Positions 34,717 to 64,000 of a stretch of DNA of 64,000 nt are shown piece by piece; position 1 is the stretch's first letter, and the number at the start of each line of letters is the position of its first letter. The translations under genes were made by a program, and so were the position numbers. The stretch comes from an uncultured Fidelibacterota bacterium (GTDB lineage Bacteria; Fidelibacterota; Marinisomatia; Marinisomatales; UBA1611). Below the pieces are notes generated by a model, which saw nothing but the letters and a program-made list of their open reading frames with translations, was not told the DNA's origin and ran no database searches. The stretch is from positions 1 through 64,000 of the forward strand of contig CAJWHW010000002.1 in NCBI GenBank assembly GCA_913040915.1, written 5' to 3'.

Positions 34717-35145
34717 TTATATATAATTGATTAATGTTTTTAACGCCTCTAAGTATCCAGGTTTCCCTAAACCTGAAATTTGATCTATGCACTTTTCCTT
34801 TATTACTGATATTCTTCTGAATTCCTCTCTTTGATTTATGTCACTGATGTGGACTTCAACTACTGGAGTCTTTATAGAAGAAATTGCATCTCGAAGTGCA
34901 TATGAATAATGTGTTAATGCACCTGGGTTAATAATTATTCCATCAAATTTGTGTACAGAATTGTGAATTTGATCAATAAGATCTCCCTCGTGGTTAGATT
35001 GGAACCAAATTATTTCATGCTCAGCTGATTCTATTTGAGAGTCAAGCCAAGATTCAATATCATTTAATGAATCGGTTCCATAAATATCAGGTTCTCTTAA
35101 CCCTAATAGATTGAGATTAGGACCATTTAAGACTAAAAACTTCAT
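34717..35145 (-). CDS. aroQ: Type II 3-dehydroquinate dehydratase
   Basis: LNGPNLNLLG.REP.IYG, NPGA.THYS, EVHIS. Confidence 0.97.
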   Translation of the reverse strand: MKFLVLNGPNLNLLGLREPDIYGTDSLNDIESWLDSQIESAEHEIIWFQSNHEGDLIDQIHNSVHKFDGIIINPGALTHYSYALRDAISSIKTPVVEVHISDINQREEFRRISVIKEKCIDQISGLGKPGYLEALKTLINYI

Positions 35146-36212
35146 TGAATTACTCGAAGAGATTCTTTGATTAATTGCTCAGAAACTTCTTGAGACGTAT
35201 TTCCTTTGCCAAGCTTATCTAAAACCACAAAATGAAGGATTCCATTTCTAACTTTTTTATCCTTTTTAACAAAAGATAAAATCGTATTTGGGTCTAATTT
35301 TTTAACATTAGGCAGTTTAAGTTTATTAATTGTATTAAATAAGTGAATTTCATCATCTGCGTTGAGCCGTCCGATTTTTTTGGATATCCACGCTGCACAT
35401 TTCATTCCTAGAGCTACAGCTTCACCATGTCGTATTCGTCCATATCCAGAATACGCTTCCAAAGCATGACCAATGGTGTGACCAAAATTTAATAGTTTTC
35501 TCAATCCATCTTCCCGTTCATCTTTAGAAACAATTTCAGCTTTAATCTCACAAGATCTGAATATCGCTTTTTCAAAAGGAAAATTATTTAAATCATCAAG
35601 CCAAAATGATATGTCGTTAAAGAAATTACGATCCCATATAGCACCATATTTTATAATTTCACCCAAACCAGCGATAGTCTCTTCTTTGGGCAAAGAGTTC
35701 AATATTTTAGGATCCACCAAAACTCCTTTTGGTTGATAAATAGATCCAATAAGGTTTTTCCCTTCAGCAATATTAATTCCTGTTTTCCCTCCAATTGCAG
35801 AATCCACCATAGCCAAAAGCGTTGTGGGAATTTGATAATAATCAATACCACGCATGAAAGATGATGAAACAAACCCACCTACATCACCGACCACACCACC
35901 ACCCAATGCCAATACAACTGAAGATCTGTCACATTTGTATTCAATCATCTGGTTAATTAATTTGCTGAATTCATTTAAGCTTTTAGCAGTCTCTCCTATG
36001 GGAAGTGTTAAATAATCTATATCAAAGTCAGCATTTTTCAGTTCATTCATTAGTTGAAATCCAAATAATTCCATGAGCTTATGTTGAGATATAATTATCC
36101 ACTTTTGACCGTGATTATGTTCAGACAAAAGTGCAGGGGCGCTCTGAAGTAGCCCCGATTTTACCTGAATTGGGTAAGAGCGAGTGCCTAGCTTAACTTG
36201 GATATTTTTCAT
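35142..36212 (-). CDS. aroB: 3-dehydroquinate synthase
   Basis: GGGVVGD, PTTLLAMVDSAIGGKTG, LNFGHT.GHA.E, HGEAV. Confidence 0.97.
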   Translation of the reverse strand: MKNIQVKLGTRSYPIQVKSGLLQSAPALLSEHNHGQKWIIISQHKLMELFGFQLMNELKNADFDIDYLTLPIGETAKSLNEFSKLINQMIEYKCDRSSVVLALGGGVVGDVGGFVSSSFMRGIDYYQIPTTLLAMVDSAIGGKTGINIAEGKNLIGSIYQPKGVLVDPKILNSLPKEETIAGLGEIIKYGAIWDRNFFNDISFWLDDLNNFPFEKAIFRSCEIKAEIVSKDEREDGLRKLLNFGHTIGHALEAYSGYGRIRHGEAVALGMKCAAWISKKIGRLNADDEIHLFNTINKLKLPNVKKLDPNTILSFVKKDKKVRNGILHFVVLDKLGKGNTSQEVSEQLIKESLRVIQ

Positions 36213-36706
36213 GATTTTAGATTAATTAAAATTTCATTTGTGATTATTTCAGGAGTTTTTCCATCAGTTTCTATAGTTATATCTGCCGTAGATGAATAAT
36301 GATCTTTTCGTTTTGACCACAATTCACTAAGTGAATCTTCTGGGGAATTTTGAGCCAATAGAGGCCTTTTATTTGAATACTTTAATCTATTTGTTAATTC
36401 TCTAATGGAAGCTGTTAATAAGATAGTAGTACCATTTCTTCTAATCAGGTTACGGTTTTCTTCTTTCAGTATAATTCCACCACCACAAGATATAACTGAA
36501 TCTGAAACTTTTTTAAGATGTTCTGTTTCTATTTTTCTGAAAATATTTTCTCCATCTATCCTAAATATATCAGAAATAGTCCTTTTTGTACTTTTTTCAA
36601 TCTCTTCATCTAGGTCAATAAATGGCTTTTTCACCTTATTTGCTAACAAGATACCTATGGTTGATTTACCTGTACCCATCATTCCAATTATGAAAATGTT
36701 CATCAA
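36209..36706 (-). CDS. aroK: Shikimate kinase
   Basis: GMMGTGKS P-loop, DLD, GE..FR, SCGGG, RPLL. Confidence 0.95.
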   Translation of the reverse strand: MMNIFIIGMMGTGKSTIGILLANKVKKPFIDLDEEIEKSTKRTISDIFRIDGENIFRKIETEHLKKVSDSVISCGGGIILKEENRNLIRRNGTTILLTASIRELTNRLKYSNKRPLLAQNSPEDSLSELWSKRKDHYSSTADITIETDGKTPEIITNEILINLKS

Positions 36707-37863
36707 TATTTTGCAGTAGCATTTAAATGAGCTTTGAGTTGCTCCATGGAATCGCCTCCAAACTTTTCCAATAATGCATCAACAAGTACAAAACATAACA
36801 TACTTTCTGCAATGATTGAAGCTGCAGGTACAGCACATGAATCTGTTCTCTCTTTATGTGCGTTTTTCTTTTCTTTAGTATTAATATCAATAGATCGTAA
36901 TGGTTTGATAAGAGTTGGGATTGGTTTCATTGCAATTTTTAGAACTATAGGCTGGGCATTACTCATCCCACCTTCAATTCCGCCCGCATTATTTGAGTAT
37001 CGGGTAAATTTTTTCCCATCATAACCAATTTCATCATGAACTTCACTACCAAATATTTTTGCGCCTACAAAACCACTGCCAATTTCTATTGCTTTAAATG
37101 CATTCACACTCATCATCATTGCTGATAAGCGCGTTTGTAGTTTTCTATCCCATTGAGTATGTGCACCAAGTCCATAGGGAACCCCTGTTGCAATCACTTC
37201 AAAAATCCCTCCTACTGAATCACCTCTTTCTTTGGCACTTTTGATTTTGTTTATCATTTTTATTTCAGCATCATTATCTAGACAGCGAACATCCGATTCA
37301 TCTGCTTTTTCACTCAATTGATTTGGTGTAAGATTCTTGGGCAAAGGATGATCATCCCTTATATCATGAATCTCGATCACTCGGCTTCCAACTTCTATAT
37401 CCACATCTTCCAATAATTTTCGACAAATGGACCCAAGTGCTACACGCATGGCGGTTTCTCGTGCACTGGAACGTTCCAAAACATTACGAATATCATCGAA
37501 TCCATATTTTTGAACGCCAGCCAGATCTGCATGCCCGGGTCGTGGGAGAGTTACTTTCCGAATATCACCTTCTACTGGATTTATGGACATTTTCTTAGTC
37601 CAGTTTTTCCAATCCTTATTTTTAATAATAAGTCCGACAGGTGCACCTATAGTTTTACCATGGCGAATACCAGACCAAATTTCAGCATAATCACTTTCAA
37701 TTTTCATTCTTCCTCCACGGCCATATCCCATTTGGCGTCGCTGAAGATGTCTACCTATATATTTTTCAGAAATTTCTAATCCTGCAGGTATGCCATCTAA
37801 GATACCTAGCAAACCTTTTCCATGAGATTCCCCAGCTGTTAAAAATTTAATTTGTCTTAACAT
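36703..37863 (-). CDS. aroC: Chorismate synthase
   Basis: TAGESHG, PRPGHAD, ERSSARET, GGIEGG, KPIPT. Confidence 0.98.
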   Translation of the reverse strand: MLRQIKFLTAGESHGKGLLGILDGIPAGLEISEKYIGRHLQRRQMGYGRGGRMKIESDYAEIWSGIRHGKTIGAPVGLIIKNKDWKNWTKKMSINPVEGDIRKVTLPRPGHADLAGVQKYGFDDIRNVLERSSARETAMRVALGSICRKLLEDVDIEVGSRVIEIHDIRDDHPLPKNLTPNQLSEKADESDVRCLDNDAEIKMINKIKSAKERGDSVGGIFEVIATGVPYGLGAHTQWDRKLQTRLSAMMMSVNAFKAIEIGSGFVGAKIFGSEVHDEIGYDGKKFTRYSNNAGGIEGGMSNAQPIVLKIAMKPIPTLIKPLRSIDINTKEKKNAHKERTDSCAVPAASIIAESMLCFVLVDALLEKFGGDSMEQLKAHLNATAKY

Positions 37864-38663
37864 AATTTTAATTTTAATACCTTTTTAATTTTTCCTAAGT
37901 CAACTTGTTTAGAAATATTTTGTTTAAACCATATATCACAAGATGCCAAACCCTGGGCAATGAACATATCTAAACCAATTACGGTTTTAACTTTAACCTC
38001 AATACCTTTTTTAAGCCATTTTGTTTGAAGAGGGTTGTAAATAGTTTCAACCAGTATATTTTTTTTGCAAAAATTAACACTCGGAATTGATTTAATATCT
38101 GGCCACATACCAATTGGAGTGCAGTTTATGATTATTTGGTAATGATGCGGCTTGTTTAATTGTTGAACTTGTGTTGTATGTATAGTAGATATTTTTTTTA
38201 TCCATTTGACAAGGTTCTTTGCTCTTTCAATAGTACGGTTAACAATTGTTATTGATTTTACTTTTTCCATAATCAGGGCATAAGCTACTGCCCGTGCTGC
38301 ACCCCCAGCACCAAGGAGCACACAATTTTGTTCATTTAAATCAATACCATTGATTTCCATGGCTCTGGAAAATCCAATCCAATCAGTATTATAGCCCGTA
38401 GAGTTATCTACGCAATTGACAGCACCAATGATTTGGGCGGCATCATCCAATCTATCCAAGAAAGGAATAATGGATTCCTTGTGTGGCAGGGTGACATTGA
38501 AACCATTTAATTGGTTTGAATTTATAAATAAGTCCATTGAATTATCTTCTACCTGAATTTTTTCATATTCAGCTTTAATATTTAATTGTTTATATATTTC
38601 GTGATGTAACGTTGTACTCAAACTATGAGCGATAGGGTCACCAATAACTGCAAATCGTTTCAT
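37857..38663 (-). CDS. aroE: Shikimate dehydrogenase
   Basis: HSLS, GFNVTLPHK, GAVN, NTD, GAGGAA, NRT. Confidence 0.95.
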   Translation of the reverse strand: MKRFAVIGDPIAHSLSTTLHHEIYKQLNIKAEYEKIQVEDNSMDLFINSNQLNGFNVTLPHKESIIPFLDRLDDAAQIIGAVNCVDNSTGYNTDWIGFSRAMEINGIDLNEQNCVLLGAGGAARAVAYALIMEKVKSITIVNRTIERAKNLVKWIKKISTIHTTQVQQLNKPHHYQIIINCTPIGMWPDIKSIPSVNFCKKNILVETIYNPLQTKWLKKGIEVKVKTVIGLDMFIAQGLASCDIWFKQNISKQVDLGKIKKVLKLKLC

Positions 38664-39907
38664 CGACGCAACCTTGCTAATCCATCATAGAACTCTGGAT
38701 AAGAAATAGAAGCACAGTCCGGATAGTCTAAAAGCAATTCACCATCACTAATAATTCCTGCAACAGTAAAGGCCATTGCTATCCTGTGATCCCGAAATGT
38801 TTCAATTTTTGCACCCTTTAATTGTGTTGGTCCATGAATAATAAACCCATCTTTAAATTCTTCGATTCTACCACCCATATTTTTCAAATTGCTACAGATG
38901 GCATGAATTCTATCACACTCTTTTACACGGAGTTCTTCTGCGCCTCTGACCACAGTTTTTCCAATTGCCTGGGTAGCCAAAATTGCAAGTATAGGTAATT
39001 CATCAATTATCCCAGGTACATCTTTTTTGGAAATTGATGTGCCCCTTAACTGTTGATAAACTACCCGTATATTACCTATTGGTTCTCCTGAATTGGTCCA
39101 TTGTTTGATGCAGGTTATCCTAGCACCCATTTTTTGGAGTATACTATAAAAACCAATTCGAGTGGGATTCCTTAAAATACTATTCAGAGTCAAATCCGAG
39201 TTTGGAACCATTGCTGCAGCTGCAGCAAAAAATGCAGCTGTGGATGGATCACCTGGGACCGTAAGTTGTATAGGAGCTAGGGGACGATTAGTTTTGGAAA
39301 TAATTGTCTTTAGTTTATTAGTTAAGATGTTAGCGCCCATACTCTTTAGCATTCGTTCAGTATGATCCCTAGAAAGAATCGGTTCAGTTATTGATGTTTC
39401 ATTTTTTGAGCCTAAGCCTGCCAGAAGTACAGCTGATTTTACTTGGGCACTTGCTATTGGTGAATTATAATGAATATTATTCAGATTACTCTTGTAAATG
39501 GTTATAGGCAATTTCCCATGATTACTTTTTGATTCCAATCCCATTTGTGATAATGGATCTAAAATACGATCCATAGGACGTGAAGAGAGAGAATCATCTC
39601 CAATTAAAGTTGCATTAATGCCCTTCATGTGTAAAAGTCCTAAAAGCAATCGTGCTGTAGTTCCCGAATTTCCACAGTCTAATGGTTTTGTTGGGTCTAA
39701 AAATTTTCCCCCAATCACGATCAAAACATCTCCATTATTTTCAAATTGAATACCACAGCTTTTTAGACAGGATATAGTAGTTTGTAAATCGGCACCAGTG
39801 GATAAATTAGAAATCCGAGACTCTCCATCAGAAATAGCTGCAAACATAAGAGCGCGATGAGAGATTGACTTATCTCCCGGCAATGAGATTTTACCCTGAA
39901 TGGCCAT
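38660..39907 (-). CDS. aroA: EPSP synthase
   Basis: PGDKSISHR, GNSGTT, SAQVKSA, RVKECDR, DHRIAM. Confidence 0.98.
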   Translation of the reverse strand: MAIQGKISLPGDKSISHRALMFAAISDGESRISNLSTGADLQTTISCLKSCGIQFENNGDVLIVIGGKFLDPTKPLDCGNSGTTARLLLGLLHMKGINATLIGDDSLSSRPMDRILDPLSQMGLESKSNHGKLPITIYKSNLNNIHYNSPIASAQVKSAVLLAGLGSKNETSITEPILSRDHTERMLKSMGANILTNKLKTIISKTNRPLAPIQLTVPGDPSTAAFFAAAAAMVPNSDLTLNSILRNPTRIGFYSILQKMGARITCIKQWTNSGEPIGNIRVVYQQLRGTSISKKDVPGIIDELPILAILATQAIGKTVVRGAEELRVKECDRIHAICSNLKNMGGRIEEFKDGFIIHGPTQLKGAKIETFRDHRIAMAFTVAGIISDGELLLDYPDCASISYPEFYDGLARLRR

Positions 39908-41240
39908 TAGACTTTAATTCATCTGCAATCAAAAAAGCTAATTCTATAGCCTGATTTGCATTAAGGCGTGGATCACAGTGAGTATGGTAACGGTTTGATA
40001 AATCAGATTCAGATATATCATCTAATCCGCCAGTACATTCTGTCACATTTTGTCCAGTCATTTCTAAATGAATACCTCCTAAATGTGAATCATTATTTTT
40101 GTGTATTTTAATATTTTGTTTTACTTCTTCTAAAATATGATCAAATGGTCGTGTTTTAATTCCACCAGAACTCTTAATTGTATTACCATGCATTGGGTCG
40201 CAGGACCAAATAACAGTTCTGCCTTCAGACTGTACTTTTTCGACTAGCTTGGGTAAGTAGAATTCAACTTTTTTATGACCAAACCTTGTAATTAATGTAA
40301 TCCTACCAGCCTGATCATTGGGATTAAGAATATCGAGAAGCTTAATTAATTCGTCAGCATCTAAAGAAGGACCACACTTAATGCCAATTGGATTATTGAT
40401 TCCTCGGCAAAATTCTATATGAGCACTTTCTTCAAATCGCGTCCGATCTCCGATCCAGACAAAATGGGCTGATGTGTTATAAATATCACCAGATGTTGAA
40501 TCGATTCGAGTCATTGCCTCTTCATATGGAAGTAATAATGCTTCGTGACTTGTATAATAATGCACTTGCCGGAGTTGAGGTGTATTGCTAGAATTAATTC
40601 CTAGTGCATCCATAAAGTTCAAGCTTTCTTGAATCTGATGAGCTAAATGTCGGTACCTTTCACCCTGCGGACCGCTTTTCACAAAACCCATATTCCAGGA
40701 GTTAACATGGCGAAGATCAGCGTAGCCTCCATCGGCAAAAGCTCGTAGTAAGTTTAAAGTAGATGCGGCTTGAGAATAGGCCTTTAGCATTCGGTCTGGG
40801 TCTGGTTGTCGTTTATTTGCTTCAAAATGGATATCATTAATTATATCACCAGTGTAGCTTGGGAGTTCTATCCCATTTTTAGTTTCAGTAGGACTTGAAC
40901 GAGGTTTGGCAAATTGTCCTGCCATTCTGCCAACTTTAACGACAGGGAGATTGGCTCCAGATGTTAGGATTACTGCCATCTGTAAAATGACCCTAAATGT
41001 ATCCCGAATATTGTCAGCATTAAATTCTGTAAAACTTTCTGCGCAATCTCCACCTTGTAAGAGAAAGCCATTGCCTTCTGCCACTTCTGCCAGTGATCGC
41101 TTTAAAGAACGAACTTCACCCGCAAAAACTAAAGGCGGAAATCCTTTCAATATATTTTCAACTTCACTTAAATGATCTTGATTTGAATAATTTGGAATAT
41201 GTTTTGCTGTAAAATTCCGCCAACTATCAGGTTGCCACAT
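39891..41240 (-). CDS. Class II DAHP synthase
   Basis: LQGGDCAESF, RMAGQFAKPRS, WIGDRTR, CDPMHGN, CDPRLN. Confidence 0.97.
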   Translation of the reverse strand: MWQPDSWRNFTAKHIPNYSNQDHLSEVENILKGFPPLVFAGEVRSLKRSLAEVAEGNGFLLQGGDCAESFTEFNADNIRDTFRVILQMAVILTSGANLPVVKVGRMAGQFAKPRSSPTETKNGIELPSYTGDIINDIHFEANKRQPDPDRMLKAYSQAASTLNLLRAFADGGYADLRHVNSWNMGFVKSGPQGERYRHLAHQIQESLNFMDALGINSSNTPQLRQVHYYTSHEALLLPYEEAMTRIDSTSGDIYNTSAHFVWIGDRTRFEESAHIEFCRGINNPIGIKCGPSLDADELIKLLDILNPNDQAGRITLITRFGHKKVEFYLPKLVEKVQSEGRTVIWSCDPMHGNTIKSSGGIKTRPFDHILEEVKQNIKIHKNNDSHLGGIHLEMTGQNVTECTGGLDDISESDLSNRYHTHCDPRLNANQAIELAFLIADELKSNGHSG

Positions 41241-41964
41241 TTTTTAATTTCTCCATACGATTATCTAAAGATTCCATTGCCAGTTTGACATTTTTTATCA
41301 TGTCTTTTGTATAGGGGTTATAAAGTTGCAGATCTGTATATAATTCCCACGTATCGTTACAGGTTTGATCTACTAAGTCCAGTAGGTCGCGAAACCCTTG
41401 AGTGTCAATAACAGTTTTACTGATACCATATTCCTTTAGCATTCTACCAAGAAAATGTGTTACTCCCTGAGTTTTAGCGGCCAGTTTATCATGTTGATCT
41501 GGAGACATTTCCATAACTTGGATTCCTTGATCAGTGAAAAATTGTTTCCAGAAAGAAAATTGGTTATGGTGATCTCGAGTATTGTCCATCATCATTTTTA
41601 GGCGATTATTCGAAAAATATGAATCGGGTCCAAACATGGGGTGGGTAGCAATGATACTTACCTGTTCCGGAAGTATCTTTTTCATGACTTCAGTAGGATA
41701 TTTTTTCACTGAACATACATCAATTACTAAGGCTTGTTCAGAAAGCTTTGAAGCAATATTCTGGATCACGGATTCAAAGTGCCTTATCGGAACTGCAATG
41801 AAAATTACCTCTTCCTTTAAAACAGTGGTTAAGTCAGCAATTTCCACTCCGGTGAATGTATGAGGAGGGGTCAGGTCGTATGTTTTAATAGCGAACCCTT
41901 TTTGTAAAATATTGGCTAGAACTTTTCCAAATCTGCCAAAACCTATTAATCCTACACTTTTCAT
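41227..41964 (-). CDS. tyrA: Prephenate/arogenate dehydrogenase
   Basis: GFGRFG, DVCSVK, THPMFGP, HD..AA..QG.TH. Confidence 0.92.
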   Translation of the reverse strand: MKSVGLIGFGRFGKVLANILQKGFAIKTYDLTPPHTFTGVEIADLTTVLKEEVIFIAVPIRHFESVIQNIASKLSEQALVIDVCSVKKYPTEVMKKILPEQVSIIATHPMFGPDSYFSNNRLKMMMDNTRDHHNQFSFWKQFFTDQGIQVMEMSPDQHDKLAAKTQGVTHFLGRMLKEYGISKTVIDTQGFRDLLDLVDQTCNDTWELYTDLQLYNPYTKDMIKNVKLAMESLDNRMEKLKNVAT

Positions 41965-42534
41965 TTATTCTCCAAGGTGTTTAACCCCAAGAAATAAGGT
42001 CAAATTATGCTTTAGGTCATGAATACTTTCTTGGAGGATCTCAAGTCCATAAAGGTCTGCGCAAGCTTTATTGGCAATAACACCTGCAGTTGGTGGTAGT
42101 TTTCCTTCTGATAACCTTCTTGCTGCTTCTGCTGTATCATCTTCCTCGATAAGTGGACGTGTCCAAAAATGTTCACTCAGGTAATCTTTACACTGCCGCA
42201 GAGCTTGTTGGTGAGAATGGATTTCAGTCACATCTCCAATATTAGTACCGGTTAATCCTAAAAGATTTTGATTAACAGTGATGTGAAACATTTCTACAAT
42301 TTCACAGCGATATTTTGCTAAAGCTTCTACACTTTCGATCACGACTCCGCCTTGGGCATTTTCCATAGCAAAAACACCATACTCTGTAACACCATTTTCA
42401 ACACCATGCAGCACAGATTTTGATGAAATTTGATAAATAACTTTTGCATCTAAAATTCCGTGGTTTTTTGCAAATTCAGATGCAGCTTCTTCTGAAAAAC
42501 TTCCTTTTCCGCCTTGTATACCAATAGTACTCAT
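41965..42534 (-). CDS. pheA: Prephenate dehydratase, catalytic domain only
   Basis: QGGKGSFSE.A, EN...G.V, SHQQAL.QC, DTAEAA, N.T.F; ends before any ACT domain. Confidence 0.88.
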   Translation of the reverse strand: MSTIGIQGGKGSFSEEAASEFAKNHGILDAKVIYQISSKSVLHGVENGVTEYGVFAMENAQGGVVIESVEALAKYRCEIVEMFHITVNQNLLGLTGTNIGDVTEIHSHQQALRQCKDYLSEHFWTRPLIEEDDTAEAARRLSEGKLPPTAGVIANKACADLYGLEILQESIHDLKHNLTLFLGVKHLGE

Positions 42535-43301
42535 AAAATTCCTTTCAGTTCTTTAATAAATTGGTTTGTTTTTGTAATAGGATCATCACAGTTATCCATA
42601 TTATTAATAATTGCTGATCCTACAACTGCACCATCCGAATAATTATTAAACCAAACAACATCATCTTTATTACTAATACCAAACCCTACTATAAATGGAG
42701 TCGTACTATTTTCACGAACTCTTGTTAAATAATTTTTTAAAGCATCCCTTGATATAAGATTATCTCCAGTAATACCTAATATGCTTACTGCATAAATGAG
42801 ATCTCCTGCTAATATTGAAATGTTTTTAATTCGTTCATTAGTTGTATTTGGTGCTACCAACAAGATAGGGGAGATGCCTTTTTCTTTGGCTAACTCACAA
42901 AATGACTCGGCCTCATCTAATGGTAAATCAGGAAGAATCAAACCATCCACACCTGAAGCAACACAACGATCTAGAAAAATCTCGTGCCCCATTTTTAAGA
43001 TCGGATTATAATATCCCATCAGGGCTAAAGGGATGGAAACTTTATTACGTATCTGCGTTGCTTGCTCAAAAATCAAATTTAATGTTATACCATTATCTAA
43101 GGCCTGCTGGCTAGATGCTTGAATTATAGGTCCATCTGCTTGTGGGTCAGAAAATGGAATTCCAATCTCAATCATATCTGCCCCTGCATCAGTGGCAGCA
43201 CAGACTAACTCTACAGTACTGTCTAAATTTGGATATCCTGCTGTTATGAAAGGAATGAGTTTTTTTCGAGGTTCTTTAAATAAAGCTTGAATACCGTTCA
43301 T
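42531..43301 (-). CDS. trpA: Tryptophan synthase alpha subunit
   Basis: [33 protein letters not shown]. Confidence 0.98.
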
Positions 43302-44503
43302 AGTTTTTCTCCTAAGGTTTCAGCAACGGTATTAACGTCTTTATCACCACGACCAGAAAGGCAGACCAAGACATCTTCATTTGGTTTAATTCCATTATTT
43401 GATTGACGTAAATAAGCTATAGCATGAGCAGTCTCAAGTGCTGGTAGTATACCTTCTTTTTTTGATAACCATTGAAATGCGTCTAATGCTTCCTGGTCTG
43501 TGGCAGAGCGGTATTCTATTCTACCTACTTCGTTTAAATAACTATGTTCTGGGCCGATGCCAGGATAATCTAGGCCAGCGGAAATGGAATGGGGTAGAAT
43601 AACCTGCCCATCATTATTTTGAAGTAAAGTAGAAGCAGCGCCATGCAATACTCCAAATTCTCCTTTATTCATAGTGGCAGCATGTTCTCCAGATTCAAGC
43701 CCTTTACCAGCTGCTTCAACTCCAATAATCTTTACATCATCTTTCAGAAATGAATAAAATAATCCCATTGCATTTGATCCGCCTCCCACACAGGCAACTA
43801 AACGATCTGGTAAAATTTTATCAGATTGTTGAGAAAATTGTTTTTTTGTCTCCTTCCCAATTATTGATTGAAAGTCTCTTACAAGCATTGGATAAGGATG
43901 GGGGCCAACGGTTGAGCCAATTAAATAATAGGTGGATTCAACATTAGTTACCCAATCACGGATAGCTTCATTGGTGGCATCCTTTAAAGTCATGCTACCT
44001 GAAGACACTGGTCTGACTTCAGCATTAAGTAATTTCATCCGAAATACATTTAATTTTTGTCTTCGTATGTCTTCTTCGCCCATATAAATAATACATTCTA
44101 ACCCAAATCGTGCAGCAACCGTAGCGGTGGCAACGCCATGCTGCCCAGCACCAGTTTCAGCAATAATTCGTTTTTTCCCCATTTGCTTAGCCAATAAGAT
44201 CTGCCCCAAAGCATTGTTGATTTTATGAGCTCCGGTATGATTTAGATCTTCTCTCTTTAGCCATATATTAAATTCCAATTCTTTTGAAATACGTTCTGCG
44301 AAGTAGAGAGCTGTCTCACGTCCTGAATAATGATTAAGTAAATTATTTAACTCATCTTGAAAAAAGCGATCATTTGTTGCCCTAAGATATTGTTTCTCTA
44401 ATTCTTCTAGAGCTGGAATAAGTGTCTCGGGTACATACTTTCCACCAAACTTATCAAAATGTCCTCGTTCATCTGGAAGGTTATAATTATCAAATTTTCT
44501 CAT
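43298..44503 (-). CDS. trpB: Tryptophan synthase beta subunit
   Basis: [37 protein letters not shown]; start moved to MRKF at 44503. Confidence 0.98.
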
Positions 44504-44510
44504 TTTTTTA

Positions 44511-46908: not shown

Positions 46909-46962
46909 TGTAAGCTCAAAGACTCTAGTTATAACTGTAGTTATATTTTTGTTTTAACAAGA

Positions 46963-49050: not shown

Positions 49051-49083
49051 AAGTGCAGTCAATATATACAGGTATCCCTGGGA

Positions 49084-50665: not shown

Positions 50666-50688
50666 AAAAGATCCTGTGTTCTAATTCA

Positions 50689-51981: not shown

Positions 51982-51984
51982 GTA

Positions 51985-56465: not shown

Positions 56466-56645
56466 CTAATTGGAAATCAAAATATTACCAAATTCCTTTA
56501 ATGAGAATAGGTTCACAGCATGATCCGCATTGTTGAATATATATGATGTTGAAGAAAAAATTCGGACTGCTCTAGCGTTTGTGCCTGCCATCGGTTCCTG
56601 CCTGGTATGGAACTGTAATTTATCAAAATGATTATTATTGCACAT
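56466..56645 (-). pseudogene. metY: N-terminal remnant of O-acetylhomoserine sulfhydrylase (metY)
   Basis: 59-codon ORF MCNNNHFDKLQFHTRQEPMAGTNARAVRIFSSTSYIFNNADHAVNLFSLKEFGNILISN* with AAGGA SD; matches the MetY N-terminal pattern F.TLQLHAGQ...T.ARAVPIY.TTSY.F....HAA.LF.L.E.GNIY. Confidence 0.85.
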
Positions 56646-56786
56646 AGATATTTTTCCTTATTTTGTGTTATTTATTGGTTTGTTACTAATATTTATGAAT
56701 TAGTTATTCATAATAAATACAAAACGTAATTGATAGCTTGTTGGGATAATATGTTAGAGGGCAAGAGACATTACAGCAGTATCTGT

Positions 56787-56898
56787 CTTATCAGTCTTCT
56801 AAAAAACTCGAAGCAGGAATTAGCACCTTGAACCGCATTGTACGGAGATGGTTGCTAAGGTATCTTAGGGCCTGATCCCTCCACCTTTCTGGATAAAA
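56787..56898 (-). ncRNA. SAM-I (S-box) riboswitch
   Basis: Minus strand TTATCCAGAAAGGTGGAGGGATCAGGCCCTAAGATACCTTAGCAACC...GGTGCTAATTCC...GATAAG: P1, kink-turn P2, GCAACC and GGTGCTAA conserved; sits upstream of met/thr genes. Confidence 0.95.
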
Positions 56899-57052
56899 TC
56901 CGGTACTGATCTGTCAAAAAGCATAAAAAACTTCTTTTAAATGTTAAATATGAAAATAAAATAATGCAAGATAACATTAATATATTTAACTATACTCCAT
57001 CATTTTCTATAATTTTTTTATAAATAAAAGGAATATGATTTATATTTGAATG

Positions 57053-57092: not shown

Positions 57093-57176
57093 ATGAACAT
57101 ACGACGACGCCATAACCATCATCTTAACACTTTGATTAATAACAATAATAATATGAGTGGGGGCGAAGCTTTGTAA
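57093..57176 (+). CDS. Asparagine-rich leader peptide (27 aa)
   Basis: MNIRRRHNHHLNTLINNNNNMSGGEAL*; 8 Asn, 5 consecutive; directly upstream of a terminator and asnB. Confidence 0.85.
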   Translation: MNIRRRHNHHLNTLINNNNNMSGGEAL

Positions 57177-57196
57177 CCATAAGGTTAAGCTTTAAT

Positions 57197-57236
57197 AAAA
57201 ACCTCCAGGGATTTTAATTCATGGGGGTTTTTTTTT
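57197..57236 (+). terminator. Attenuator intrinsic terminator upstream of asnB
   Basis: AAAAACCTCCA...TGGGGG followed by 9 T, 23 nt before the asnB start. Confidence 0.88.
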
Positions 57237-57259: not shown

Positions 57260-58849
57260 ATGTGTGGCATATTTTTATATAAAGGTAGAAAACAAGATTG
57301 GAATTCATTGGAACCTGATATTAAACGGATTGGTTATCGCGGCCCAGATAATACACACCATGAAATGATTGGCAATGATATATTATTAGCTTTCCATCGA
57401 TTAGCTATCATGGGCACAAGTGAAATGGGCGATCAACCGATGAAACATCCCAATGATGCTTCGCTCACTCTGATCTGTAATGGTGAAATTTATAATTATA
57501 AAAATTTAGCTAAAAAATATAGCTTTAATTTGAAGACAGGCTCTGATTGTGAAATTATTTTATTCATGTTTAAACAATTTGGTATTCAAAGAACTGTAAA
57601 GGAATTAGATGGCGTTTTCATGTTCGTATTATATGAAGCAAATACTGGTCTACTTTTTGCTGGCCGGGATCCCATGGGTGTTCGTCCGGGGTTTATCGGT
57701 CGAAATGGAGATGAGATTATGATTGCATCAGAAGCAAAATCCATGGTGAATCATTCTTCAAGTATTATTCCATTTCCCCCAGGGCATTGGTGGTGTTCGA
57801 ACCTTTCAGATATATTCAATCCTTATTTTCTTTATAATAAAATCAAAATTCAAGAAAACACCGAAGAAGATATTTGTAATAAAATCCAGTTATTATTAAC
57901 AGCTGCAGTTAAGAAACGGCTTATGACAGAACGTGATATTGGGTGTTTATTATCTGGTGGTTTGGATTCGAGTTTAATTTGTGCTCTTGTGAATAAGTAT
58001 TATGAAGGACCAAAACTAAATACATTTTCTATTGGACTTGTAGGGAGCATTGACCTTGAATATGCACAAGATGTGTCCTCTCATTTGAAATCAAAACACC
58101 ACCAGATAGAAGTATCTCAAAATGAGTTTTTAGATGCAATTGAAACTGTGATTTATAATATTGAATCTTATGATACTACTACAGTCAGAGCCAGTGTAGG
58201 CAATTACCTCGTTTCAAAATATATTTCAGATAATTCTGATTGCAAGGTGATTTTTAACGGTGATGGCAGTGATGAGGTATGTTGTGGATATGTATATTTA
58301 AGGAATGCACCATCACCAGTTGATTTGCAAAAAGAAAATGAAAGGCTGGTTGAAGAGATTCATTATTTTGATGTGCTGCGCTCAGACCGCAGTATTAGTT
58401 CTAATGGTTTGGAAGCACGGACGCCTTTTTTGGATAAAACATTTGTGAAGTATTATTTATCAATTCCTGCGGAATTAAAGTTATTTGATGGGGCACAAAG
58501 ATTAGAAAAATATTTATTAAGAAAAGCTTTTGATGATCAGGGACTTTTACCAGATAAAGTTTTATGGCGTCGGAAATGTGCTTTTTCAGATGGTGTAAGT
58601 TCGCAGAATAATTCCTGGCATCATATTATCCAATCATTTGTAGACCAAAAAATTAGTGATGAAGAATTTCAGCGAGAAAGCACTAAGATCACACATTGCA
58701 CTCCTCAATTAAAAGAGAGTTATTACTATCGTAAAGTATTCAATAGCTTCTTTGAGAATCATGAGAATTTAATTCCTCATTTCTGGATGCCTAAGTGGTC
58801 CAATACGATAGACCCTTCAGCTAGAGAATTAAGTGGGTACAAAGAATAA
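57260..58849 (+). CDS. asnB: Glutamine-hydrolysing asparagine synthetase
   Basis: MCGI Ntn start, RGPD, NGEIYN, LSGGLDSS, PFLD, RRK.AFSDG, DPSAR. Confidence 0.96.
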   Translation: MCGIFLYKGRKQDWNSLEPDIKRIGYRGPDNTHHEMIGNDILLAFHRLAIMGTSEMGDQPMKHPNDASLTLICNGEIYNYKNLAKKYSFNLKTGSDCEIILFMFKQFGIQRTVKELDGVFMFVLYEANTGLLFAGRDPMGVRPGFIGRNGDEIMIASEAKSMVNHSSSIIPFPPGHWWCSNLSDIFNPYFLYNKIKIQENTEEDICNKIQLLLTAAVKKRLMTERDIGCLLSGGLDSSLICALVNKYYEGPKLNTFSIGLVGSIDLEYAQDVSSHLKSKHHQIEVSQNEFLDAIETVIYNIESYDTTTVRASVGNYLVSKYISDNSDCKVIFNGDGSDEVCCGYVYLRNAPSPVDLQKENERLVEEIHYFDVLRSDRSISSNGLEARTPFLDKTFVKYYLSIPAELKLFDGAQRLEKYLLRKAFDDQGLLPDKVLWRRKCAFSDGVSSQNNSWHHIIQSFVDQKISDEEFQRESTKITHCTPQLKESYYYRKVFNSFFENHENLIPHFWMPKWSNTIDPSARELSGYKE

Positions 58850-58944: not shown

Positions 58945-59112
58945 ATGTACGATACTGCAATAAATAAAATTAGCATTACGGGGATGAAGCCAATTGGGCT
59001 TTGTGACCGCGAAATTCTATGCCAAATGGTTACTATATTGCAATCCATTATTCGGTACCTAAGTATATCAATTTTGGTACTTATTATTACCTTCGCCGTT
59101 TTGATCGCCTAG
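58945..59112 (+). CDS. Putative branched-chain amino-acid leader peptide (55 aa; alternative start 59026, 28 aa)
   Basis: Ends MVTILQSIIRYLSISILVLIITFAVLIA*; 16 of the last 28 residues are I/L/V; 3' end forms the arm of a 19-bp hairpin; upstream of ilv/leu operon. Confidence 0.62.
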   Translation: MYDTAINKISITGMKPIGLCDREILCQMVTILQSIIRYLSISILVLIITFAVLIA

Positions 59113-59148
59113 TTAAAACAAATACATTCAGGTGATTCAAACGGTGAA
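59092..59148 (+). promoter_or_regulatory. Long hairpin overlapping the end of the ilv leader ORF
   Basis: TTCGCCGTTTTGATCGCCT pairs with AGGTGATTCAAACGGTGAA (19 positions, 1 mismatch, 3 G-U pairs that favour the + strand). Confidence 0.7.
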
Positions 59149-59255
59149 AAAACTCTCCCCGATTAATTAGTCCATCCCTGAAGTATCTAATCTGGCAATT
59201 CGAACTGGTAAAATAGTTTGCGTAGTATTTATTGTTGCGTTGAAAAAGGGACTTG

Positions 59256-59338
59256 ATGAGTTTAGATCAAATAAAGTAGGATTTGAACATGCGTCCCACA
59301 GAAGCCCTTTGCGGGCTGCGAGCACAGTATTAAAGTAG
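59256..59338 (+). pseudogene. Probable internally deleted ilvD remnant
   Basis: After AAAGGGA SD: MSLDQIK, frameshift, VGFEHASHRSPLRA, then ASTVLK*; resembles IlvD start MRSD.IK.GFERAPHRSLLRA joined to an IlvD-like end (SAS.GAVLK). Confidence 0.6.
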
Positions 59339-59345
59339 TGGAGAC

Positions 59346-61073
59346 ATGAAAATGGAAAAACGAACTCTAACAGGAGCAGAAATTATTTGGGAATGTGTGA
59401 CTAAAGAAGATGTGGGTGTGGTTTTTGGATATCCAGGAGGTGCAATCCTACCGGCATATGATGCTTTGAATAATTATCGGGATAAAATTCACCATGTGTT
59501 AGTGCGCCATGAACAGGGCGCGACACATATGGCTGATGGGTATGCACGTGCTAGTGGAAATGTGGGGGTAGCTATAGCGACATCAGGACCAGGAGCAACC
59601 AATATGGTCACAGGTTTGGCTACTGCAAAATTAGATTCTGTCCCCATTGTATGTATTACAGGTCAAGTTCCCCGGACTGCCATTGGATCAGATGCGTTTC
59701 AAGAAGTAGATATTTATGGTACAGTTTTTCCGGTGACAAAACATAGTTATTTAGTTATGGATATAAAAGACTTGGCCCCAACTATTAAGGAAGCATTTGC
59801 AGTGGCACGTTCCGGTAGGCCTGGTCCGGTTCTGATTGATATCCCTAAAGATATCCAAACTGAAACAATAGAATTTATTTATCCCAGTGAGCCTGTGAGA
59901 TTGCCGGGAAATAATAAACTACAAATCTCCACTGAAAAACAAATTAACGATGCAATCAACTTAATAAATAATGCAAAAAAACCAGTTATTCTTGCAGGAC
60001 ATGGTATTCTTCTATCTGGCGCTTCTCGAGAAGTGATAAAATTGGCAGAAACTGCATCAATTCCCATTGGCTGGACTTTATTGGGTTCAGGAAGTGTCCC
60101 TGCCAGCCACCCACTGAATATGGGTATGATGGGCATGCATGGCGAATTTGCAGTGAATAATGCGATCCAAGATGCGGATCTATTAATTGCCTGTGGAATG
60201 CGTTTTGATGATCGTGTTACAGGTAATGTAAAAACCTATTCACCCAATTCAAAAAAAATTCACATTGAAATTGATCCATCAGAAATCAATAAGAATGTCC
60301 CTGCCGATGTAGGTATTGCCGGAGATCTACGAACTATTTTACTTCAACTTCTTCCGTTGGTAAAACAACGGAAAAATGAAGACTGGCTTAAAATAATTTC
60401 TTCTTGGCAATCTGAATCTATGGAAAGAGATATCATCAATGTCCAAACAGATACCCTCTACGGGGCCCAAGTGATTCGTGATATCTGGAAAGAGACCAGG
60501 GGTGATGCGCTTATTGTAACAGATGTAGGCCAGCACCAAATGCTTGAAGCACAGTATTATGCTCATGAAGAGCCCAACACATTATTAACCTCTGGTGGTT
60601 TGGGGACGATGGGTTTCAGTTTACCGGCGGCAATAGGTGCTAGTTTCACAAATAGAAATAAAGATATTTGGGTTATTGTCGGAGATGGTAGTATCCAGAT
60701 GACAATTACTGAATTGGCTACTGCAGTACAAGAGAATGCTAATATAAAAATTGCCATAATTAATAATGGTTACTTGGGCATGGTTCGTCAGTGGCAGCAG
60801 CTATTTTATGATGCCCGTTATGCTGAAACACCCATTAGTAGCCCCGATTATTTAAAGATTTCAGAGGCGTATGGTCTGCCAGGCCATAGGGTACAAACCC
60901 GTGCTGAGATTCCTAATGTAATTAATATGGCAAAAAAAAATGAAGGCCCCGTCCTTATAGAGTTTGTAGTGGAGCAACATGATATGGTTTATCCTATGGT
61001 GCCAGCTGGCGCTGATTTGAATGCTATGATCAACAGGCCGAAAAATAAGCAATTTCAAGAAATAGAAGAATAA
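59346..61073 (+). CDS. ilvB: Acetolactate synthase large subunit
   Basis: FGYPGGA, RHEQGA.HMADGY, TSGPGATN, RFDDR, GDGS..M...E, GMVRQWQ. Confidence 0.97.
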   Translation: MKMEKRTLTGAEIIWECVTKEDVGVVFGYPGGAILPAYDALNNYRDKIHHVLVRHEQGATHMADGYARASGNVGVAIATSGPGATNMVTGLATAKLDSVPIVCITGQVPRTAIGSDAFQEVDIYGTVFPVTKHSYLVMDIKDLAPTIKEAFAVARSGRPGPVLIDIPKDIQTETIEFIYPSEPVRLPGNNKLQISTEKQINDAINLINNAKKPVILAGHGILLSGASREVIKLAETASIPIGWTLLGSGSVPASHPLNMGMMGMHGEFAVNNAIQDADLLIACGMRFDDRVTGNVKTYSPNSKKIHIEIDPSEINKNVPADVGIAGDLRTILLQLLPLVKQRKNEDWLKIISSWQSESMERDIINVQTDTLYGAQVIRDIWKETRGDALIVTDVGQHQMLEAQYYAHEEPNTLLTSGGLGTMGFSLPAAIGASFTNRNKDIWVIVGDGSIQMTITELATAVQENANIKIAIINNGYLGMVRQWQQLFYDARYAETPISSPDYLKISEAYGLPGHRVQTRAEIPNVINMAKKNEGPVLIEFVVEQHDMVYPMVPAGADLNAMINRPKNKQFQEIEE

Positions 61074-61088
61074 AGGAATTAATAAGTA

Positions 61089-61640
61089 ATGAAGCAAACC
61101 TTAATCGTATTTGTTCAGGATGAGCCTGGCGTATTAAATAGGATCTCCAGTCATATCCGACGGCGAAACTTTAATATTGAAAGTCTGGTGGCAGGCCGGA
61201 CCGAAAAGAAAGGTATTACCAGAATGACCGTTGTGTTAAATGAACCTGACCAAACCAAACAACGGATTGTAGTCAATAGTTTAAAACAACTTATTGATGT
61301 ATATGATGTAATTGATGCGACCAAAATTGAAAGCCATATACGAGAATATGCATTGGTTAAAGTTGCCATAAAGAAAAATGATTTGGCAGATGTGGAAAAA
61401 GTAGTTAAAAGTATTCATGGTAATATTATTGAAAGTAGTGATGATGCTACCATCTTTGAATTGACGGGTTATGAAGAAGAAGTAGAATTAGCAATTTCGC
61501 AACTTGAGCGATATAACGTATTAGAAATTGTTCGTTCAGGGAAAGTAGCCATGGCTTCCGGTAATTACGCGGAAAATCAGCCTGAGTTAAACAAGACAGA
61601 ACCAAATTGGTCAACCCGTAGAATTCTGGAATCCTTTTAA
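61089..61640 (+). CDS. ilvN: Acetolactate synthase small regulatory subunit
   Basis: PGVL.RI....RR.FNIESL ACT domain; E..L.KV; E.VRSG. Confidence 0.95.
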   Translation: MKQTLIVFVQDEPGVLNRISSHIRRRNFNIESLVAGRTEKKGITRMTVVLNEPDQTKQRIVVNSLKQLIDVYDVIDATKIESHIREYALVKVAIKKNDLADVEKVVKSIHGNIIESSDDATIFELTGYEEEVELAISQLERYNVLEIVRSGKVAMASGNYAENQPELNKTEPNWSTRRILESF

Positions 61641-61672
61641 CAAAAGCTTTGAATTAAATCTTTGGAGACAAA

Positions 61673-62716
61673 ATGAAAGAATTAAATATTAATGGATATT
61701 CTGAAACCATTATTGAACGGTCAGATTTTCCACAAGAAAAATGTAAAGCTATATTAAAAGATGAAGTTACAGCCATCCTTGGATATGGCCCACAAGGTTA
61801 TGGTCAAGGAATGAATATGCGTGATCAGGGGTATAATGTCATCTTGGGGCTACGCCGCGGACTTAGTTGGGATAAGGCTTTAAGTGATGGATGGCTGGAA
61901 GGTGAAAATCTTTTTGAAATTTCTGATGCCGCAAAGCGAGGGACTATAATTCAATTTCTACTTTCTGATGCTGGACAAATTCAAGCATGGCCTACAGTTA
62001 AAGAGCACTTGAACGAAGGTGATGCTCTTTATTTTTCACACGGTTTCGGTGTTGTCTTTAATGATCACACTAATATTGTTACACCAGATAATATAGATGT
62101 AATGCTCGTAGCTCCCAAAGGTAGCGGTTTAACAGTGCGAACGCATTTTAAATCGGGACGCGGAATTAATGCTTCATTTGCAATCCATCAGGATTTTACA
62201 GGTAAGGCTAGAGACCGTTGTATTGCAACAGCATTTGCAATAGGCTCAGGGCATTTATTCGAAACGACTTTTGAAAAGGAAGTCCATAGTGATTTGACTG
62301 GTGAAAGATGTGTATTAATGGGACTTCTTCAAGGAGCCTTTTTAGCACAATATGAAGTCTTACGTGAAAATGGACATTCTCCATCTGAGGCTTATAATGA
62401 AACGATCGAAGAAGCATTACAAAGTCTTTATCCGCTGGTAGCAGAAAATGGTATGGATTGGATGTATGCAAATTGCTCTACAACAGCTCAGCGTGGAGCT
62501 TTGGATTGGGCACCCAAATTCAGAGATACCTTAAAACCAGTTATTGAAGAATGTTATCAAAAAGTATTGAGCGGCGAAGAAGCCAAACGTGCAATTGAAT
62601 CCAACTCAAAATTAGATTACAGGGAGACACTGGAAAAAGAATTAGCTGCAATTAATGATCAGGAAATGTGGGTTGCTGGAAAGGAATTACGGCAATTGCG
62701 CCCAGAGAATCTCTAA
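61673..62716 (+). CDS. ilvC: Ketol-acid reductoisomerase (Bacteroides/fungal Ilv5-like type)
   Basis: GYGPQG, LLSDAGQ, FSHGF, APKGSG, SDLTGER, CSTTAQRGALDW. Confidence 0.96.
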   Translation: MKELNINGYSETIIERSDFPQEKCKAILKDEVTAILGYGPQGYGQGMNMRDQGYNVILGLRRGLSWDKALSDGWLEGENLFEISDAAKRGTIIQFLLSDAGQIQAWPTVKEHLNEGDALYFSHGFGVVFNDHTNIVTPDNIDVMLVAPKGSGLTVRTHFKSGRGINASFAIHQDFTGKARDRCIATAFAIGSGHLFETTFEKEVHSDLTGERCVLMGLLQGAFLAQYEVLRENGHSPSEAYNETIEEALQSLYPLVAENGMDWMYANCSTTAQRGALDWAPKFRDTLKPVIEECYQKVLSGEEAKRAIESNSKLDYRETLEKELAAINDQEMWVAGKELRQLRPENL

Positions 62717-62723
62717 TCATATT

Positions 62724-63842
62724 ATGAAATCATTAAAATTAACAATTCTTCCAGGTGATGGTATAGGCCCAGAAGTAATGGATGCCGCCCTGGGTATCTT
62801 GGATGTTATAGGTGCTCACTATAACCTGAATTTTGAATTTCAGTCAGAATTAATGGGCGGGGCATCAATTGATCGATGTGGCGAGCCTATTACTGTAGAT
62901 GTTTTGGAAAAATGCAAGGCATCTGATGCTGTACTTTTAGGTGCTGTGGGAGGACTTAAGTGGGATGACTTACCTCCAGAAAAAAAACCTGAAAAAGGGT
63001 TGTTACGCCTTAGGGAAGAGTTAGGATTGTTTTGCAATCTTCGCCCTGCGAAGATTTATACCCCATTGGCAGATGCATCAACACTTAAAAGGGATGTAAT
63101 TGTAGGCTCGGATATAATGGTGGTCCGTGAATTAACAAGTGGAATTTATTTTGGTGAGCCTAGGGGCCTTAATCGAGATGAAGGTTATAATACACTTTAT
63201 TATAAAAGAAATGAGGTAGAGAGGATTGCCAAATCAGCCTTTAAGCTAGCGCAAAAACGTAATGGCCATGTTACATCAGTAGATAAGTCCAATGTATTAG
63301 ATAGTTCGCAGTTTTGGCGGAATATTGTTCATGAAGTTCATAAGGATTTTAAAGATGTTCCTTTAACAGACATGCTTGTTGATAATGCTGCTATGCAATT
63401 AGTACGTGATCCTAAGCAGTTTGATGTCGTAGTCACTCAAAATTTATTCGGGGATATATTAAGTGATATTACCGCTATACTTACCGGCAGTTTAGGTATG
63501 CTTCCATCGGCCAGTATTGGTGATACCCATGCCTTATATGAGCCTGTCCATGGGACAGCACCAGATATTGCCGGACAAAATAAAGCTAATCCGATTGCCA
63601 TGATTAGTTCCGTAGCCATGATGTTGGAAATCACTCTAAATCTGCCTCAGGCAGCATTGGAGTTAAATCAAGCGATTGAATCCGTATTAAATGAAGGATA
63701 TAGGACTTTGGATATTGCATCTGAAGGTTCGATCATTATTTCAACAACTGATATGAGGGATCAAATAATCCAAACCTTTGAAAAAAATGTAGTTCAAGTT
63801 ACTAATATGTCTTCTCAAGAATTTGTAAAGGAAAAAAGATGA
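62724..63842 (+). CDS. leuB: 3-isopropylmalate dehydrogenase
   Basis: [46 protein letters not shown]; start moved to MKSL at 62724. Confidence 0.97.
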
Positions 63843-64000
63843 GTGAAAAAATTATAGTATTTGATACAACATTGCGGGATGGTGAACAAGCGCCAGGTGC
63901 ATCCCTCAACGTATATGAAAAGTTGGAAATTGCAAAACAAATGGAGCGACTTAATGTGGATGTTATTGAAGCAGGATTCCCAGTCTCATCGCAAGCACAG
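63839..64000 (+). CDS. leuA: 2-isopropylmalate synthase, 5' part (runs off window)
   Basis: ATGA overlap with leuB stop; [23 protein letters not shown]...VDVIEAGFP. Confidence 0.93.

Follow-up and report, generated by a model that had tools for sequence, protein, structure and literature searches.

Candidate leader-peptide attenuators and a SAM-I riboswitch in an apparently decaying amino-acid biosynthesis neighbourhood of a Fidelibacterota bacterium

We analysed a 64,000-nt stretch of DNA (the window; positions 1 to 64,000 of contig CAJWHW010000002.1, assembly GCA_913040915.1, forward strand) from an uncultured Fidelibacterota bacterium, and in particular the RNA leaders that precede the amino-acid biosynthesis genes at 34717–64000. 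All 26 main open reading frames (ORFs) of at least 100 aa in this part matched amino-acid biosynthesis families of NCBIfam, and the family scan did not extend to four more ORFs of this size (at least 100 aa), which run antisense within those genes. No regulator gene was found among the 26 scanned ORFs and no regulator-like ORF fits the three intergenic gaps, in agreement with a preliminary description of this DNA that had noticed four adjacent biosynthetic units (aromatic; threonine/methionine; asnB; branched-chain) without a transcription-factor gene. The cis elements named in that description, namely an asparagine (Asn) leader, an aromatic (Trp/Tyr/Phe) leader, an isoleucine/leucine/valine (ILV) leader and a SAM-I riboswitch aptamer, are all present (Table 1). 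It had missed that ilvD, which in relatives follows the ILV leader, is now a stub; it also overlooked that metY-metA, the genes proper to the riboswitch, is reduced to a stub of 52 codons, and that a chorismate mutase gene precedes the aromatic leader.

Table 1. Genes and candidate regulatory features of the biosynthetic part of the window
Feature	Coordinates	Strand	Evidence or detail
Aromatic supraoperon, 16 genes	34717..49013	-	NCBIfam; order from 49013 down: trpE, trpG, trpD, trpC, trpF, trpB, trpA, prephenate dehydratase, prephenate dehydrogenase, class II 3-deoxy-D-arabino-heptulosonate 7-phosphate (DAHP) synthase, aroA, aroE, aroC, aroK, aroB, aroQ
Aromatic intrinsic terminator	hairpin 49049..49028; with U-tract 49021..49049	-	8-bp stem, 9 U
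Aromatic antiterminator	49042..49097	-	GGGGUU of last codons pairs with AACCCC left arm; inner hairpin spans stop codon
Aromatic (Trp/Tyr/Phe) leader ORF, 22 codons	49152..49084	-	core YYNWYWFF; encodes MNYKNIENYYNWYWFFSLKGVT
Chorismate mutase (type II)	49193..49465	-	Pfam CM_2, E 1.5e-21
thrA (aspartokinase/homoserine dehydrogenase), asd, thrB, thrC, cystathionine gamma-synthase family gene (metB)	49523..56391	-	NCBIfam
metY (O-acetylhomoserine sulfhydrylase) stub, residues 5-56 of 437	56481..56636	-	tblastn with MetY of locus L009: 71% identity over 52 residues, E 3e-18
SAM-I riboswitch aptamer	56785..56899	-	Rfam RF00162, 73.8 bits vs gathering threshold 44.4, full model 1-108
Asn leader ORF, 27 codons	57093..57176	+	run of five Asn codons; encodes MNIRRRHNHHLNTLINNNNNMSGGEAL
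Asn antiterminator	57158..57207	+	leader UGGGGG pairs with terminator left arm CCUCCA; inner hairpin spans stop codon
Asn intrinsic terminator	hairpin 57202..57227; 9-U tract to 57236	+	ends 23 nt before asnB ATG
asnB, glutamine-hydrolysing asparagine synthase	57260..58849	+	NCBIfam TIGR01536, 354.8 bits vs 267.1
ILV leader ORF	59026..59112 (longest reading from 58945)	+	ends ...ILVLIITFAVLIA
Long conserved hairpin	59093..59147	+	5' arm = last leader codons and stop codon
C-rich, G-poor tract	59148..59197	+	C 14, G 6 in 50 nt; candidate Rho loading site
ilvD stub	59256..59338	+	start codon, frameshift near codon 7, residues ~7-25 fused to last few codons
ilvB, ilvN, ilvC, leuB	59346..63842	+	NCBIfam

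Relatives were collected as 34 AsnB-anchored loci (designated by L numbers), each fetched with 10 kb of flanks, so that the window and the loci together amount to 583 kb. The sources of 30 of the 34 are Marinimicrobia, Neomarinimicrobiota, Fidelibacterota or marine metagenome-assembled genomes, and a taxonomy look-up resolved these names to the phylum Fidelibacterota (Marinimicrobia, SAR406) of the FCB (Fibrobacteres–Chlorobi–Bacteroidetes) group. A 1201-aa protein encoded at 2916–6521 (minus strand), with an M43 peptidase domain and a C-terminal Por/type IX secretion system sorting domain, is consistent with an organism of the FCB group. Because the scan was anchored on asnB, aromatic and ILV leaders are visible only if no more than 10 kb away from that gene. 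Six loci in which the asnB start is absent (L024, L028, L029, L030, L033 and L034) were dropped, leaving 28, and in L020 only 39 nt of upstream sequence, showing the right arm of the terminator and its U-tract, are available, so that the denominator for the Asn leader is 27 loci. The Asn leader was folded in the window and 20 loci, the ILV region was compared in nine sequences (the window and eight relatives), and the aromatic leader in five (the window, L001, L002, L006 and L012).

An Asn-rich leader ORF precedes asnB in the window and in 21 of the 27 loci; its uninterrupted run of Asn codons numbers five in the window and reaches nine in some relatives. It was not seen in L009, L021, L023, L026, L027 and L031; in L009 (9800–10000, upstream of asnB) a decayed Asn leader can be made out by eye, in which fragments of the N-run and of the stop-spanning hairpin are left and the G-run and U-tract are gone. 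All 21 folded leaders carry a G-run in the last codons, an inner hairpin over the stop codon, and a terminator followed by 6–9 U, and in each of them the end of the leader can form 5–11 pairs with the left arm of the terminator. The antiterminators so formed have predicted energies of −15.5 to −23.7 kcal/mol (−15.7 kcal/mol in the window), and the terminators −9.1 to −20.8 kcal/mol. Spacing is tight, with 12–15 nt from the start of the G-run to the stop codon and 16–29 nt from the end of the U-tract to the asnB ATG. The sequence of the inner hairpin varies and its pairing is kept by compensatory changes. Moreover, the C-termini of the peptides diverge (SGGEAL, GVGAPV, GVGESV, GMGDLF, EVGLIM) yet the G-run is retained in all, which argues that selection acts on the RNA. 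RNAalifold on a MAFFT alignment of the 21 leaders gave only 10 pairs, the G-run being shifted by 2–3 columns between subgroups, and per-sequence folds were used for this reason. The same design is present again in L013, which was omitted from the folding set because ~250 nt are inserted behind its terminator; this insert (L013, 2480–2660), between the terminator and asnB, holds a long near-perfect palindrome and may be a small repeat element.

The preliminary description had seen no separate 1:2 protector stem in these leaders, and this holds for the window's own subgroup, where any hairpin in the 30 nt before the G-run is −2.8 kcal/mol or weaker in the window and six other Asn leaders of the first group. 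It does not hold for most of the more distant leaders: in 8 of the 11 folded, the G-run is abutted by a hairpin of −6.2 to −9.6 kcal/mol that shows covariation, and in some of these the extra hairpin shares bases with the antiterminator. Thus the lineage holds both two-hairpin and three-hairpin versions of the element.

The leader of the aromatic supraoperon is built in the same way. The genes of this operon abut or overlap at their ends and make Trp, Tyr and Phe, and its single leader carries codons for all three amino acids. The WYWFF core and the same structural layout are found in L001, L002, L006 and L012, and the trpE ATG at 49013 is kept in relatives. The end of the U-tract lies 7 nt before this ATG and the G-run 9 nt before the leader stop codon. 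In L012 (8070–8430 and 8777–9678) trpE is cut after 38 matching residues, pheA follows ~90 nt on, and the aromatic leader is intact; the metB homologue there is hit by two matches that overlap, a sign of a frameshift. The prephenate dehydratase of the window (41965–42534, minus strand) has 189 aa and covers positions 3–183 of a 284-position profile; its C-terminal regulatory (ACT) part seems to be missing, and feedback inhibition by Phe could be absent.

To place the shared design against a background, we listed 174 terminator-like hairpins in the 583 kb and sought the best upstream partner of each left arm within 200 nt. Partners that reach −8 kcal/mol or better and are no more than 70 nt away were found for 21 of 21 Asn leaders and 5 of 5 aromatic leaders, and for 29 of the 148 other terminator-like hairpins. 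In the leaders the partner always lies 43–50 nt upstream (48–49 nt in all five aromatic cases), in the last leader codons. The C-run arm of the terminator can pair with either of two G-runs, that of the leader or the terminator's own, and the antiterminator and terminator pairings are mutually exclusive in all 26 sequences. An earlier scan, which asked for at least five pairs in the minimum free energy fold of a 24-nt leader end, was dropped since it missed all five aromatic leaders and gave ~30 noise matches in coding regions. Among 56 terminator-before-gene sites in the 583 kb, which include few other biosynthetic operons, no codon-biased leaders were found beyond the asnB and trpE cases; the carA-carB genes (carbamoyl-phosphate synthase) at 25128–29400 (plus strand), upstream of the cluster, were not flagged by the scan as having such a leader. 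These folds bear out the design proposed earlier for the aromatic and Asn leaders, namely control codons, a G-run, a stop-spanning hairpin and a terminator near the first gene, and its recurrence (21 of 21 Asn leaders and L013; 5 of 5 aromatic leaders), together with the position of the partner, supports the idea that minimal leader-peptide attenuators form a set specific to this lineage. The case for attenuation is one of position and conservation, and not of covariation in the predicted outer G:C stem.

From this anatomy, from the alternative pairings and from their conservation we infer a ribosome logic, in which the five Asn codons before asnB, and the YYNWYWFF stretch before the aromatic operon, would serve as control codons. 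A ribosome stalled on hungry early control codons would leave the G-run free, and the antiterminator would form first; the G-run and the C-run would then make one long antiterminator, with the inner hairpin over the stop codon, and RNA polymerase would read on. A ribosome that reaches the stop codon would cover the G-run, 9–15 nt upstream, and open the inner hairpin, and the C-run would pair with the downstream G-run to give the terminator, ending transcription. A leader that is not translated, in the window's lineage with no 1:2 hairpin, should by this logic default to read-through and not to termination. Sensing by the Asn leader would also presuppose that free Asn is loaded directly onto tRNA-Asn, in place of the GatCAB route.

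The ILV leader is a third conserved leader but would work differently, and is not counted here among the classical attenuators, having no intrinsic terminator: the terminator scan and the folds gave no U-tract terminator between the leader and the next gene in any of the nine sequences. The hairpin that begins in its last codons has −22.7 kcal/mol in the window, against a shuffle mean of −8.3, with none of 200 shuffles as good; over the nine sequences it ranges from −21 to −26 kcal/mol, with 0–2 of 200 shuffles as good, and 8 of its 20 pairs show a compensatory change. In seven of the nine the next 50 nt hold at least 14 C and at most 6 G, a composition shared by 2.9% of all 50-nt windows in the 583 kb. 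Some 6-mers of the 3' arm of the hairpin and of the C-rich tract co-vary by eye (TTCAGG/CCTGAA, GGTAGG/CCTRCC and GGAAGG/CCTTTC) and are not counted here as demonstrated pairings. An intact ilvD of 556–560 aa stands between the ILV leader and ilvB in all eight relatives, and the window has suffered an internal deletion of ~1.6 kb and a frameshift in this gene. The ATG context of the stub aligns with the ilvD starts of the relatives; because the tblastn match of residues 7–25 is weak (E 0.02–0.09), the call of the stub depends on position. By eye the ILV leader and hairpin of the window are nearer to L009 and L010 than to L001–L003, although its AsnB is closest to that of L001 (83%), and this mosaic affinity may be due to recombination.

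A similar loss is seen behind the SAM-I aptamer, which lies 394 nt upstream of thrA with the metY stub in between. The homologous aptamers of L009 and L010 score 87.3 and 75.7 bits. The order thrA-asd-thrB-thrC-metB is common to L001, L002, L006, L008, L009 and L010, and in L009 the riboswitch is followed by an intact metY (437 aa), metA (267 aa) and then thrA; in L010 the riboswitch is present and both metY and metA are absent from that place. The intact metY-metA pair behind the riboswitch of L009 indicates that the riboswitch was the ancestral leader of a metY-led (metY-metA-thrA...) unit. Comparison of the gene orders points to deletions that have fused the riboswitch to thrA, and the ILV leader to ilvB, in the genome of the window. 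No U-tract terminator was found after the aptamer in the window, and folds of the window and of L009 gave no resolvable expression platform. At 318–1475 (minus strand), 48 kb from the cluster, the window encodes a second pyridoxal 5'-phosphate-dependent enzyme of Cys/Met metabolism (PF01053, E 3e-130), 32% identical to the MetY of L009; in the metabolism of sulfur amino acids this enzyme may partly take the place of what was lost.

Taken together, these observations are probably best explained by two-hairpin attenuators before asnB and the aromatic operon, a terminator-less ILV leader, and an ancestral metY SAM-I leader, in a decaying gene neighbourhood. Several points weigh against this explanation. 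On mononucleotide shuffling of the last 18 nt of the leader (the row for L010, where the terminator was misplaced, being disregarded), the observed number of pairs was reached in 9–94 of 200 shuffles, so that the pairing follows from the G-richness of the leader end and not from its base order, and the nearly invariant outer G:C stem leaves little covariation to be seen. The aromatic leader is found in close relatives only, in five sequences with few changes. With a ribosomal footprint of ~12–15 nt on the downstream side, a ribosome whose A site is on the last control codon would probably keep the G-run partly covered, so that relief would have to come from stalls at earlier codons. For the ILV region, a proposed masking helix between the 3' arm of the hairpin and the C-rich tract was matched by 43–237 of 300 shuffles, and occlusion of the ilvD start was significant only in L003 (2 of 300; 26 of 300 in L008 and 60–201 of 300 in the rest); neither candidate was retained. 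Finally, misassembly could in principle account for the missing parts of ilvD and metY, or the genes could stand elsewhere in the genome.

Control could instead lie mainly with regulatory proteins whose genes are elsewhere (resembling, for example, Lrp/AsnC, TyrR or TrpR) and whose operators share these intergenic regions with the leaders, the leader ORFs being accessory or irrelevant; we hold this to be unlikely but worth serious attention. In the closest relatives (L001, L006 and L008) the thr unit gave no riboswitch match, and in L001 only ~128 nt lie between thrA and the Asn leader; with no riboswitch and little space, some other control of that thr unit is likely. No positive sign of outside regulators was found, in a view that takes in 64 kb of the genome, and the stretch 34717–64000 itself holds no regulator gene. 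Moreover, loci whose AsnB identity is 65–83% keep their leader ORFs, G-runs and terminators in the same register, which operators alone would not explain. The question raised in the preliminary description, whether the leaders recur in relatives, is answered for all three: the Asn leader in 21 of 27 loci, the aromatic leader in the window and four loci, and the ILV leader in nine of nine sequences. Regulators encoded elsewhere may still act beside the RNA leaders, which the preliminary description had taken for the only apparent control.

For the ILV element two other explanations have to be weighed together, namely that the product of the ORF is a small hydrophobic peptide of the membrane, or that the hairpin is an element of mRNA stability or processing, neither being a sensor of amino acids. 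The peptide does resemble a transmembrane helix, no terminator follows the ORF, and shuffled sequences did as well as the real ones in the tests of alternative pairing. However, the ORF stands directly before the branched-chain operon in all eight relatives that have the region, conservation is confined to its ILV-rich C-terminus (the same C-terminal pattern recurs in 8 of 8, the N-terminal part not being conserved), and a conserved hairpin with covarying pairs encloses the stop codon, as in attenuators. We thus consider a non-sensing peptide or hairpin rather improbable, and rank Rho-dependent attenuation first for the ILV leader, with modest confidence.

The hairpin before trpE could also be read as a mere 3' terminator of the thr-metB-chorismate mutase transcript, with a fortuitous aromatic-rich ORF in front of it. 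The chorismate mutase gene lies between metB and the aromatic leader, also in L001, L002, L006, L008 and L012; being upstream of the leader it is not under its control, and the terminator, 144 nt past its stop codon and on the same strand, probably ends that transcript too. That this is its only role is very unlikely: all five sequences retain the WYWFF ORF together with its G-run and stop-spanning hairpin, even L012, where the trp genes behind them are deleted; the antiterminators (−16.1 to −20.4 kcal/mol) are more stable than the terminators (−9.0 to −10.7 kcal/mol) in each of the five folds; and the same design precedes asnB, where no co-oriented gene stands upstream.

The preliminary description had further supposed that the 29 kb form a block which confers prototrophy and is gained or lost as a unit. 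Prototrophy is hard to ascribe to a locus that lacks ilvD, metY and metA. Modules are lost singly, ilvD and metY-metA in the window and trp and thr genes in L012, where trpE is down to 38 residues, trpG to trpA and thrA to thrC are gone, and the aromatic leader is retained before pheA. In L004 and L007 asd-thrA is not next to asnB, and in L008 the aromatic operon is not adjacent to chorismate mutase; the Asn leader moves with asnB, and 17 of the 28 loci with the start of that gene have it in other contexts, mostly together with its leader. A horizontally mobile, all-or-none 'prototrophy island' is the least credible of the alternatives, since, although four biosynthetic units stand side by side and the thr-asnB-ilv order recurs in six loci, piecemeal losses and changed contexts of this kind are joined by a flat G+C content (0.32–0.39 over 34–64 kb, like the rest of the window), by the lack of any tRNA gene in the window, and by flanks of ordinary genes, with no integrase or transposase family among the 29 flanking ORFs scanned (10 of the 29 had no Pfam match at E ≤ 1e-5). 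By its gene content and context, the cluster appears to be a decaying, lineage-typical syntenic neighbourhood on the chromosome, not a mobile or all-or-none block.

We put forward tentatively, as a possibility that we do not favour in its full extent, that the phylum as a whole uses minimal attenuators, including what may be the first described Asn-sensing leader, a Trp/Tyr/Phe leader and a Rho-acting ILV leader, and that in the course of genome streamlining such leaders, and a SAM riboswitch, outlive the deletion of their first genes and are re-wired. Re-wiring would place the threonine genes under the control of S-adenosylmethionine, and would give ilvB a leader whose original target was ilvD. 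The SAR406/Fidelibacterota are abundant ocean bacteria, and the elements, if they work as proposed, would be a first set of cis-regulatory signals for the phylum. Asparagine would then join the amino acids that are sensed by leader peptides, a natural minimal two-hairpin attenuator would test the need for the classical 1:2 hairpin, and regulatory leaders would be seen to persist and to acquire new targets once streamlining has removed the genes that followed them. The ilvD and metY-metA stubs also bear on predictions of amino-acid auxotrophy for these organisms.

Attenuators of the E. coli type (trpL, hisL, thrL, pheL, ilvL/ivbL) combine a short ORF rich in codons for the end product with a terminator before the first gene, and the terminator's left arm also takes part in their antiterminator, which a ribosome standing on the leader stop codon disables. 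The Asn and aromatic leaders resemble them in their clustered codons, their terminator and an antiterminator that shares the left arm, and the multivalent codon sets found here (Trp/Tyr/Phe and Ile/Leu/Val) parallel those of E. coli thrL and ilvL. They differ in that the window's lineage has no 1:2 (anti-antiterminator) hairpin and that the terminator nearly touches the start codon. No matching leader family was found in Rfam: the aromatic and Asn leaders do not belong to Trp_leader (RF00513) or His_leader (RF00514), both matches being below threshold (the aromatic leader scores 20.7 bits where 41 are required, E 2.1, and the Asn leader 24.4 bits where 49 are required, E 1.6). In the aromatic supraoperon of Bacillus subtilis, trp genes are joined with aro, tyrA and related genes under control of the TRAP protein. 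The unit described here is similar in having Trp and aro genes in one long transcription unit, but it adds pheA and the whole shikimate pathway and has a Trp/Tyr/Phe leader peptide in place of TRAP. The riboswitch agrees with SAM-I (S-box) elements in an aptamer above the gathering threshold of RF00162 that precedes the methionine genes metY and metA in L009, and departs from typical ones in that the first genes behind it in the window are deleted and no U-tract terminator follows the aptamer.

No Asn leader peptide was found in the full-text literature searched; older surveys (Vitreschak et al. 2004, Lopatovskaya et al. 2010) may list related elements, and the accessible parts of Naville and Gautheret 2010 (PMC2965389) mention neither asparagine nor Bacteroidetes. 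The literature searched also held nothing on attenuators or gene regulation in Marinimicrobia/SAR406. Leader-peptide attenuation has been suggested for Flavobacterium psychrophilum of the FCB group (PMC9723704), and control of this kind would thus be expected in the superphylum, though that species belongs to a different phylum from the Fidelibacterota. For the ILV element the closest counterparts are the uORF (upstream ORF)-dependent Rho attenuators tnaC, mgtL/mgtA, corL/corA and speFL (reviewed in PMC12360218). The ILV element is laid out in a comparable way, since past the stop region of its leader ORF comes an untranslated tract, C-rich and G-poor, and no intrinsic terminator. In such a layout, according to that review, the position of the ribosome or a refolding of the leader masks or unmasks a Rut (Rho utilization) site. 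The signal would differ, being charged Ile, Leu and Val tRNA in the case of the ILV leader and a small molecule or Mg2+ in the known Rho attenuators covered there.

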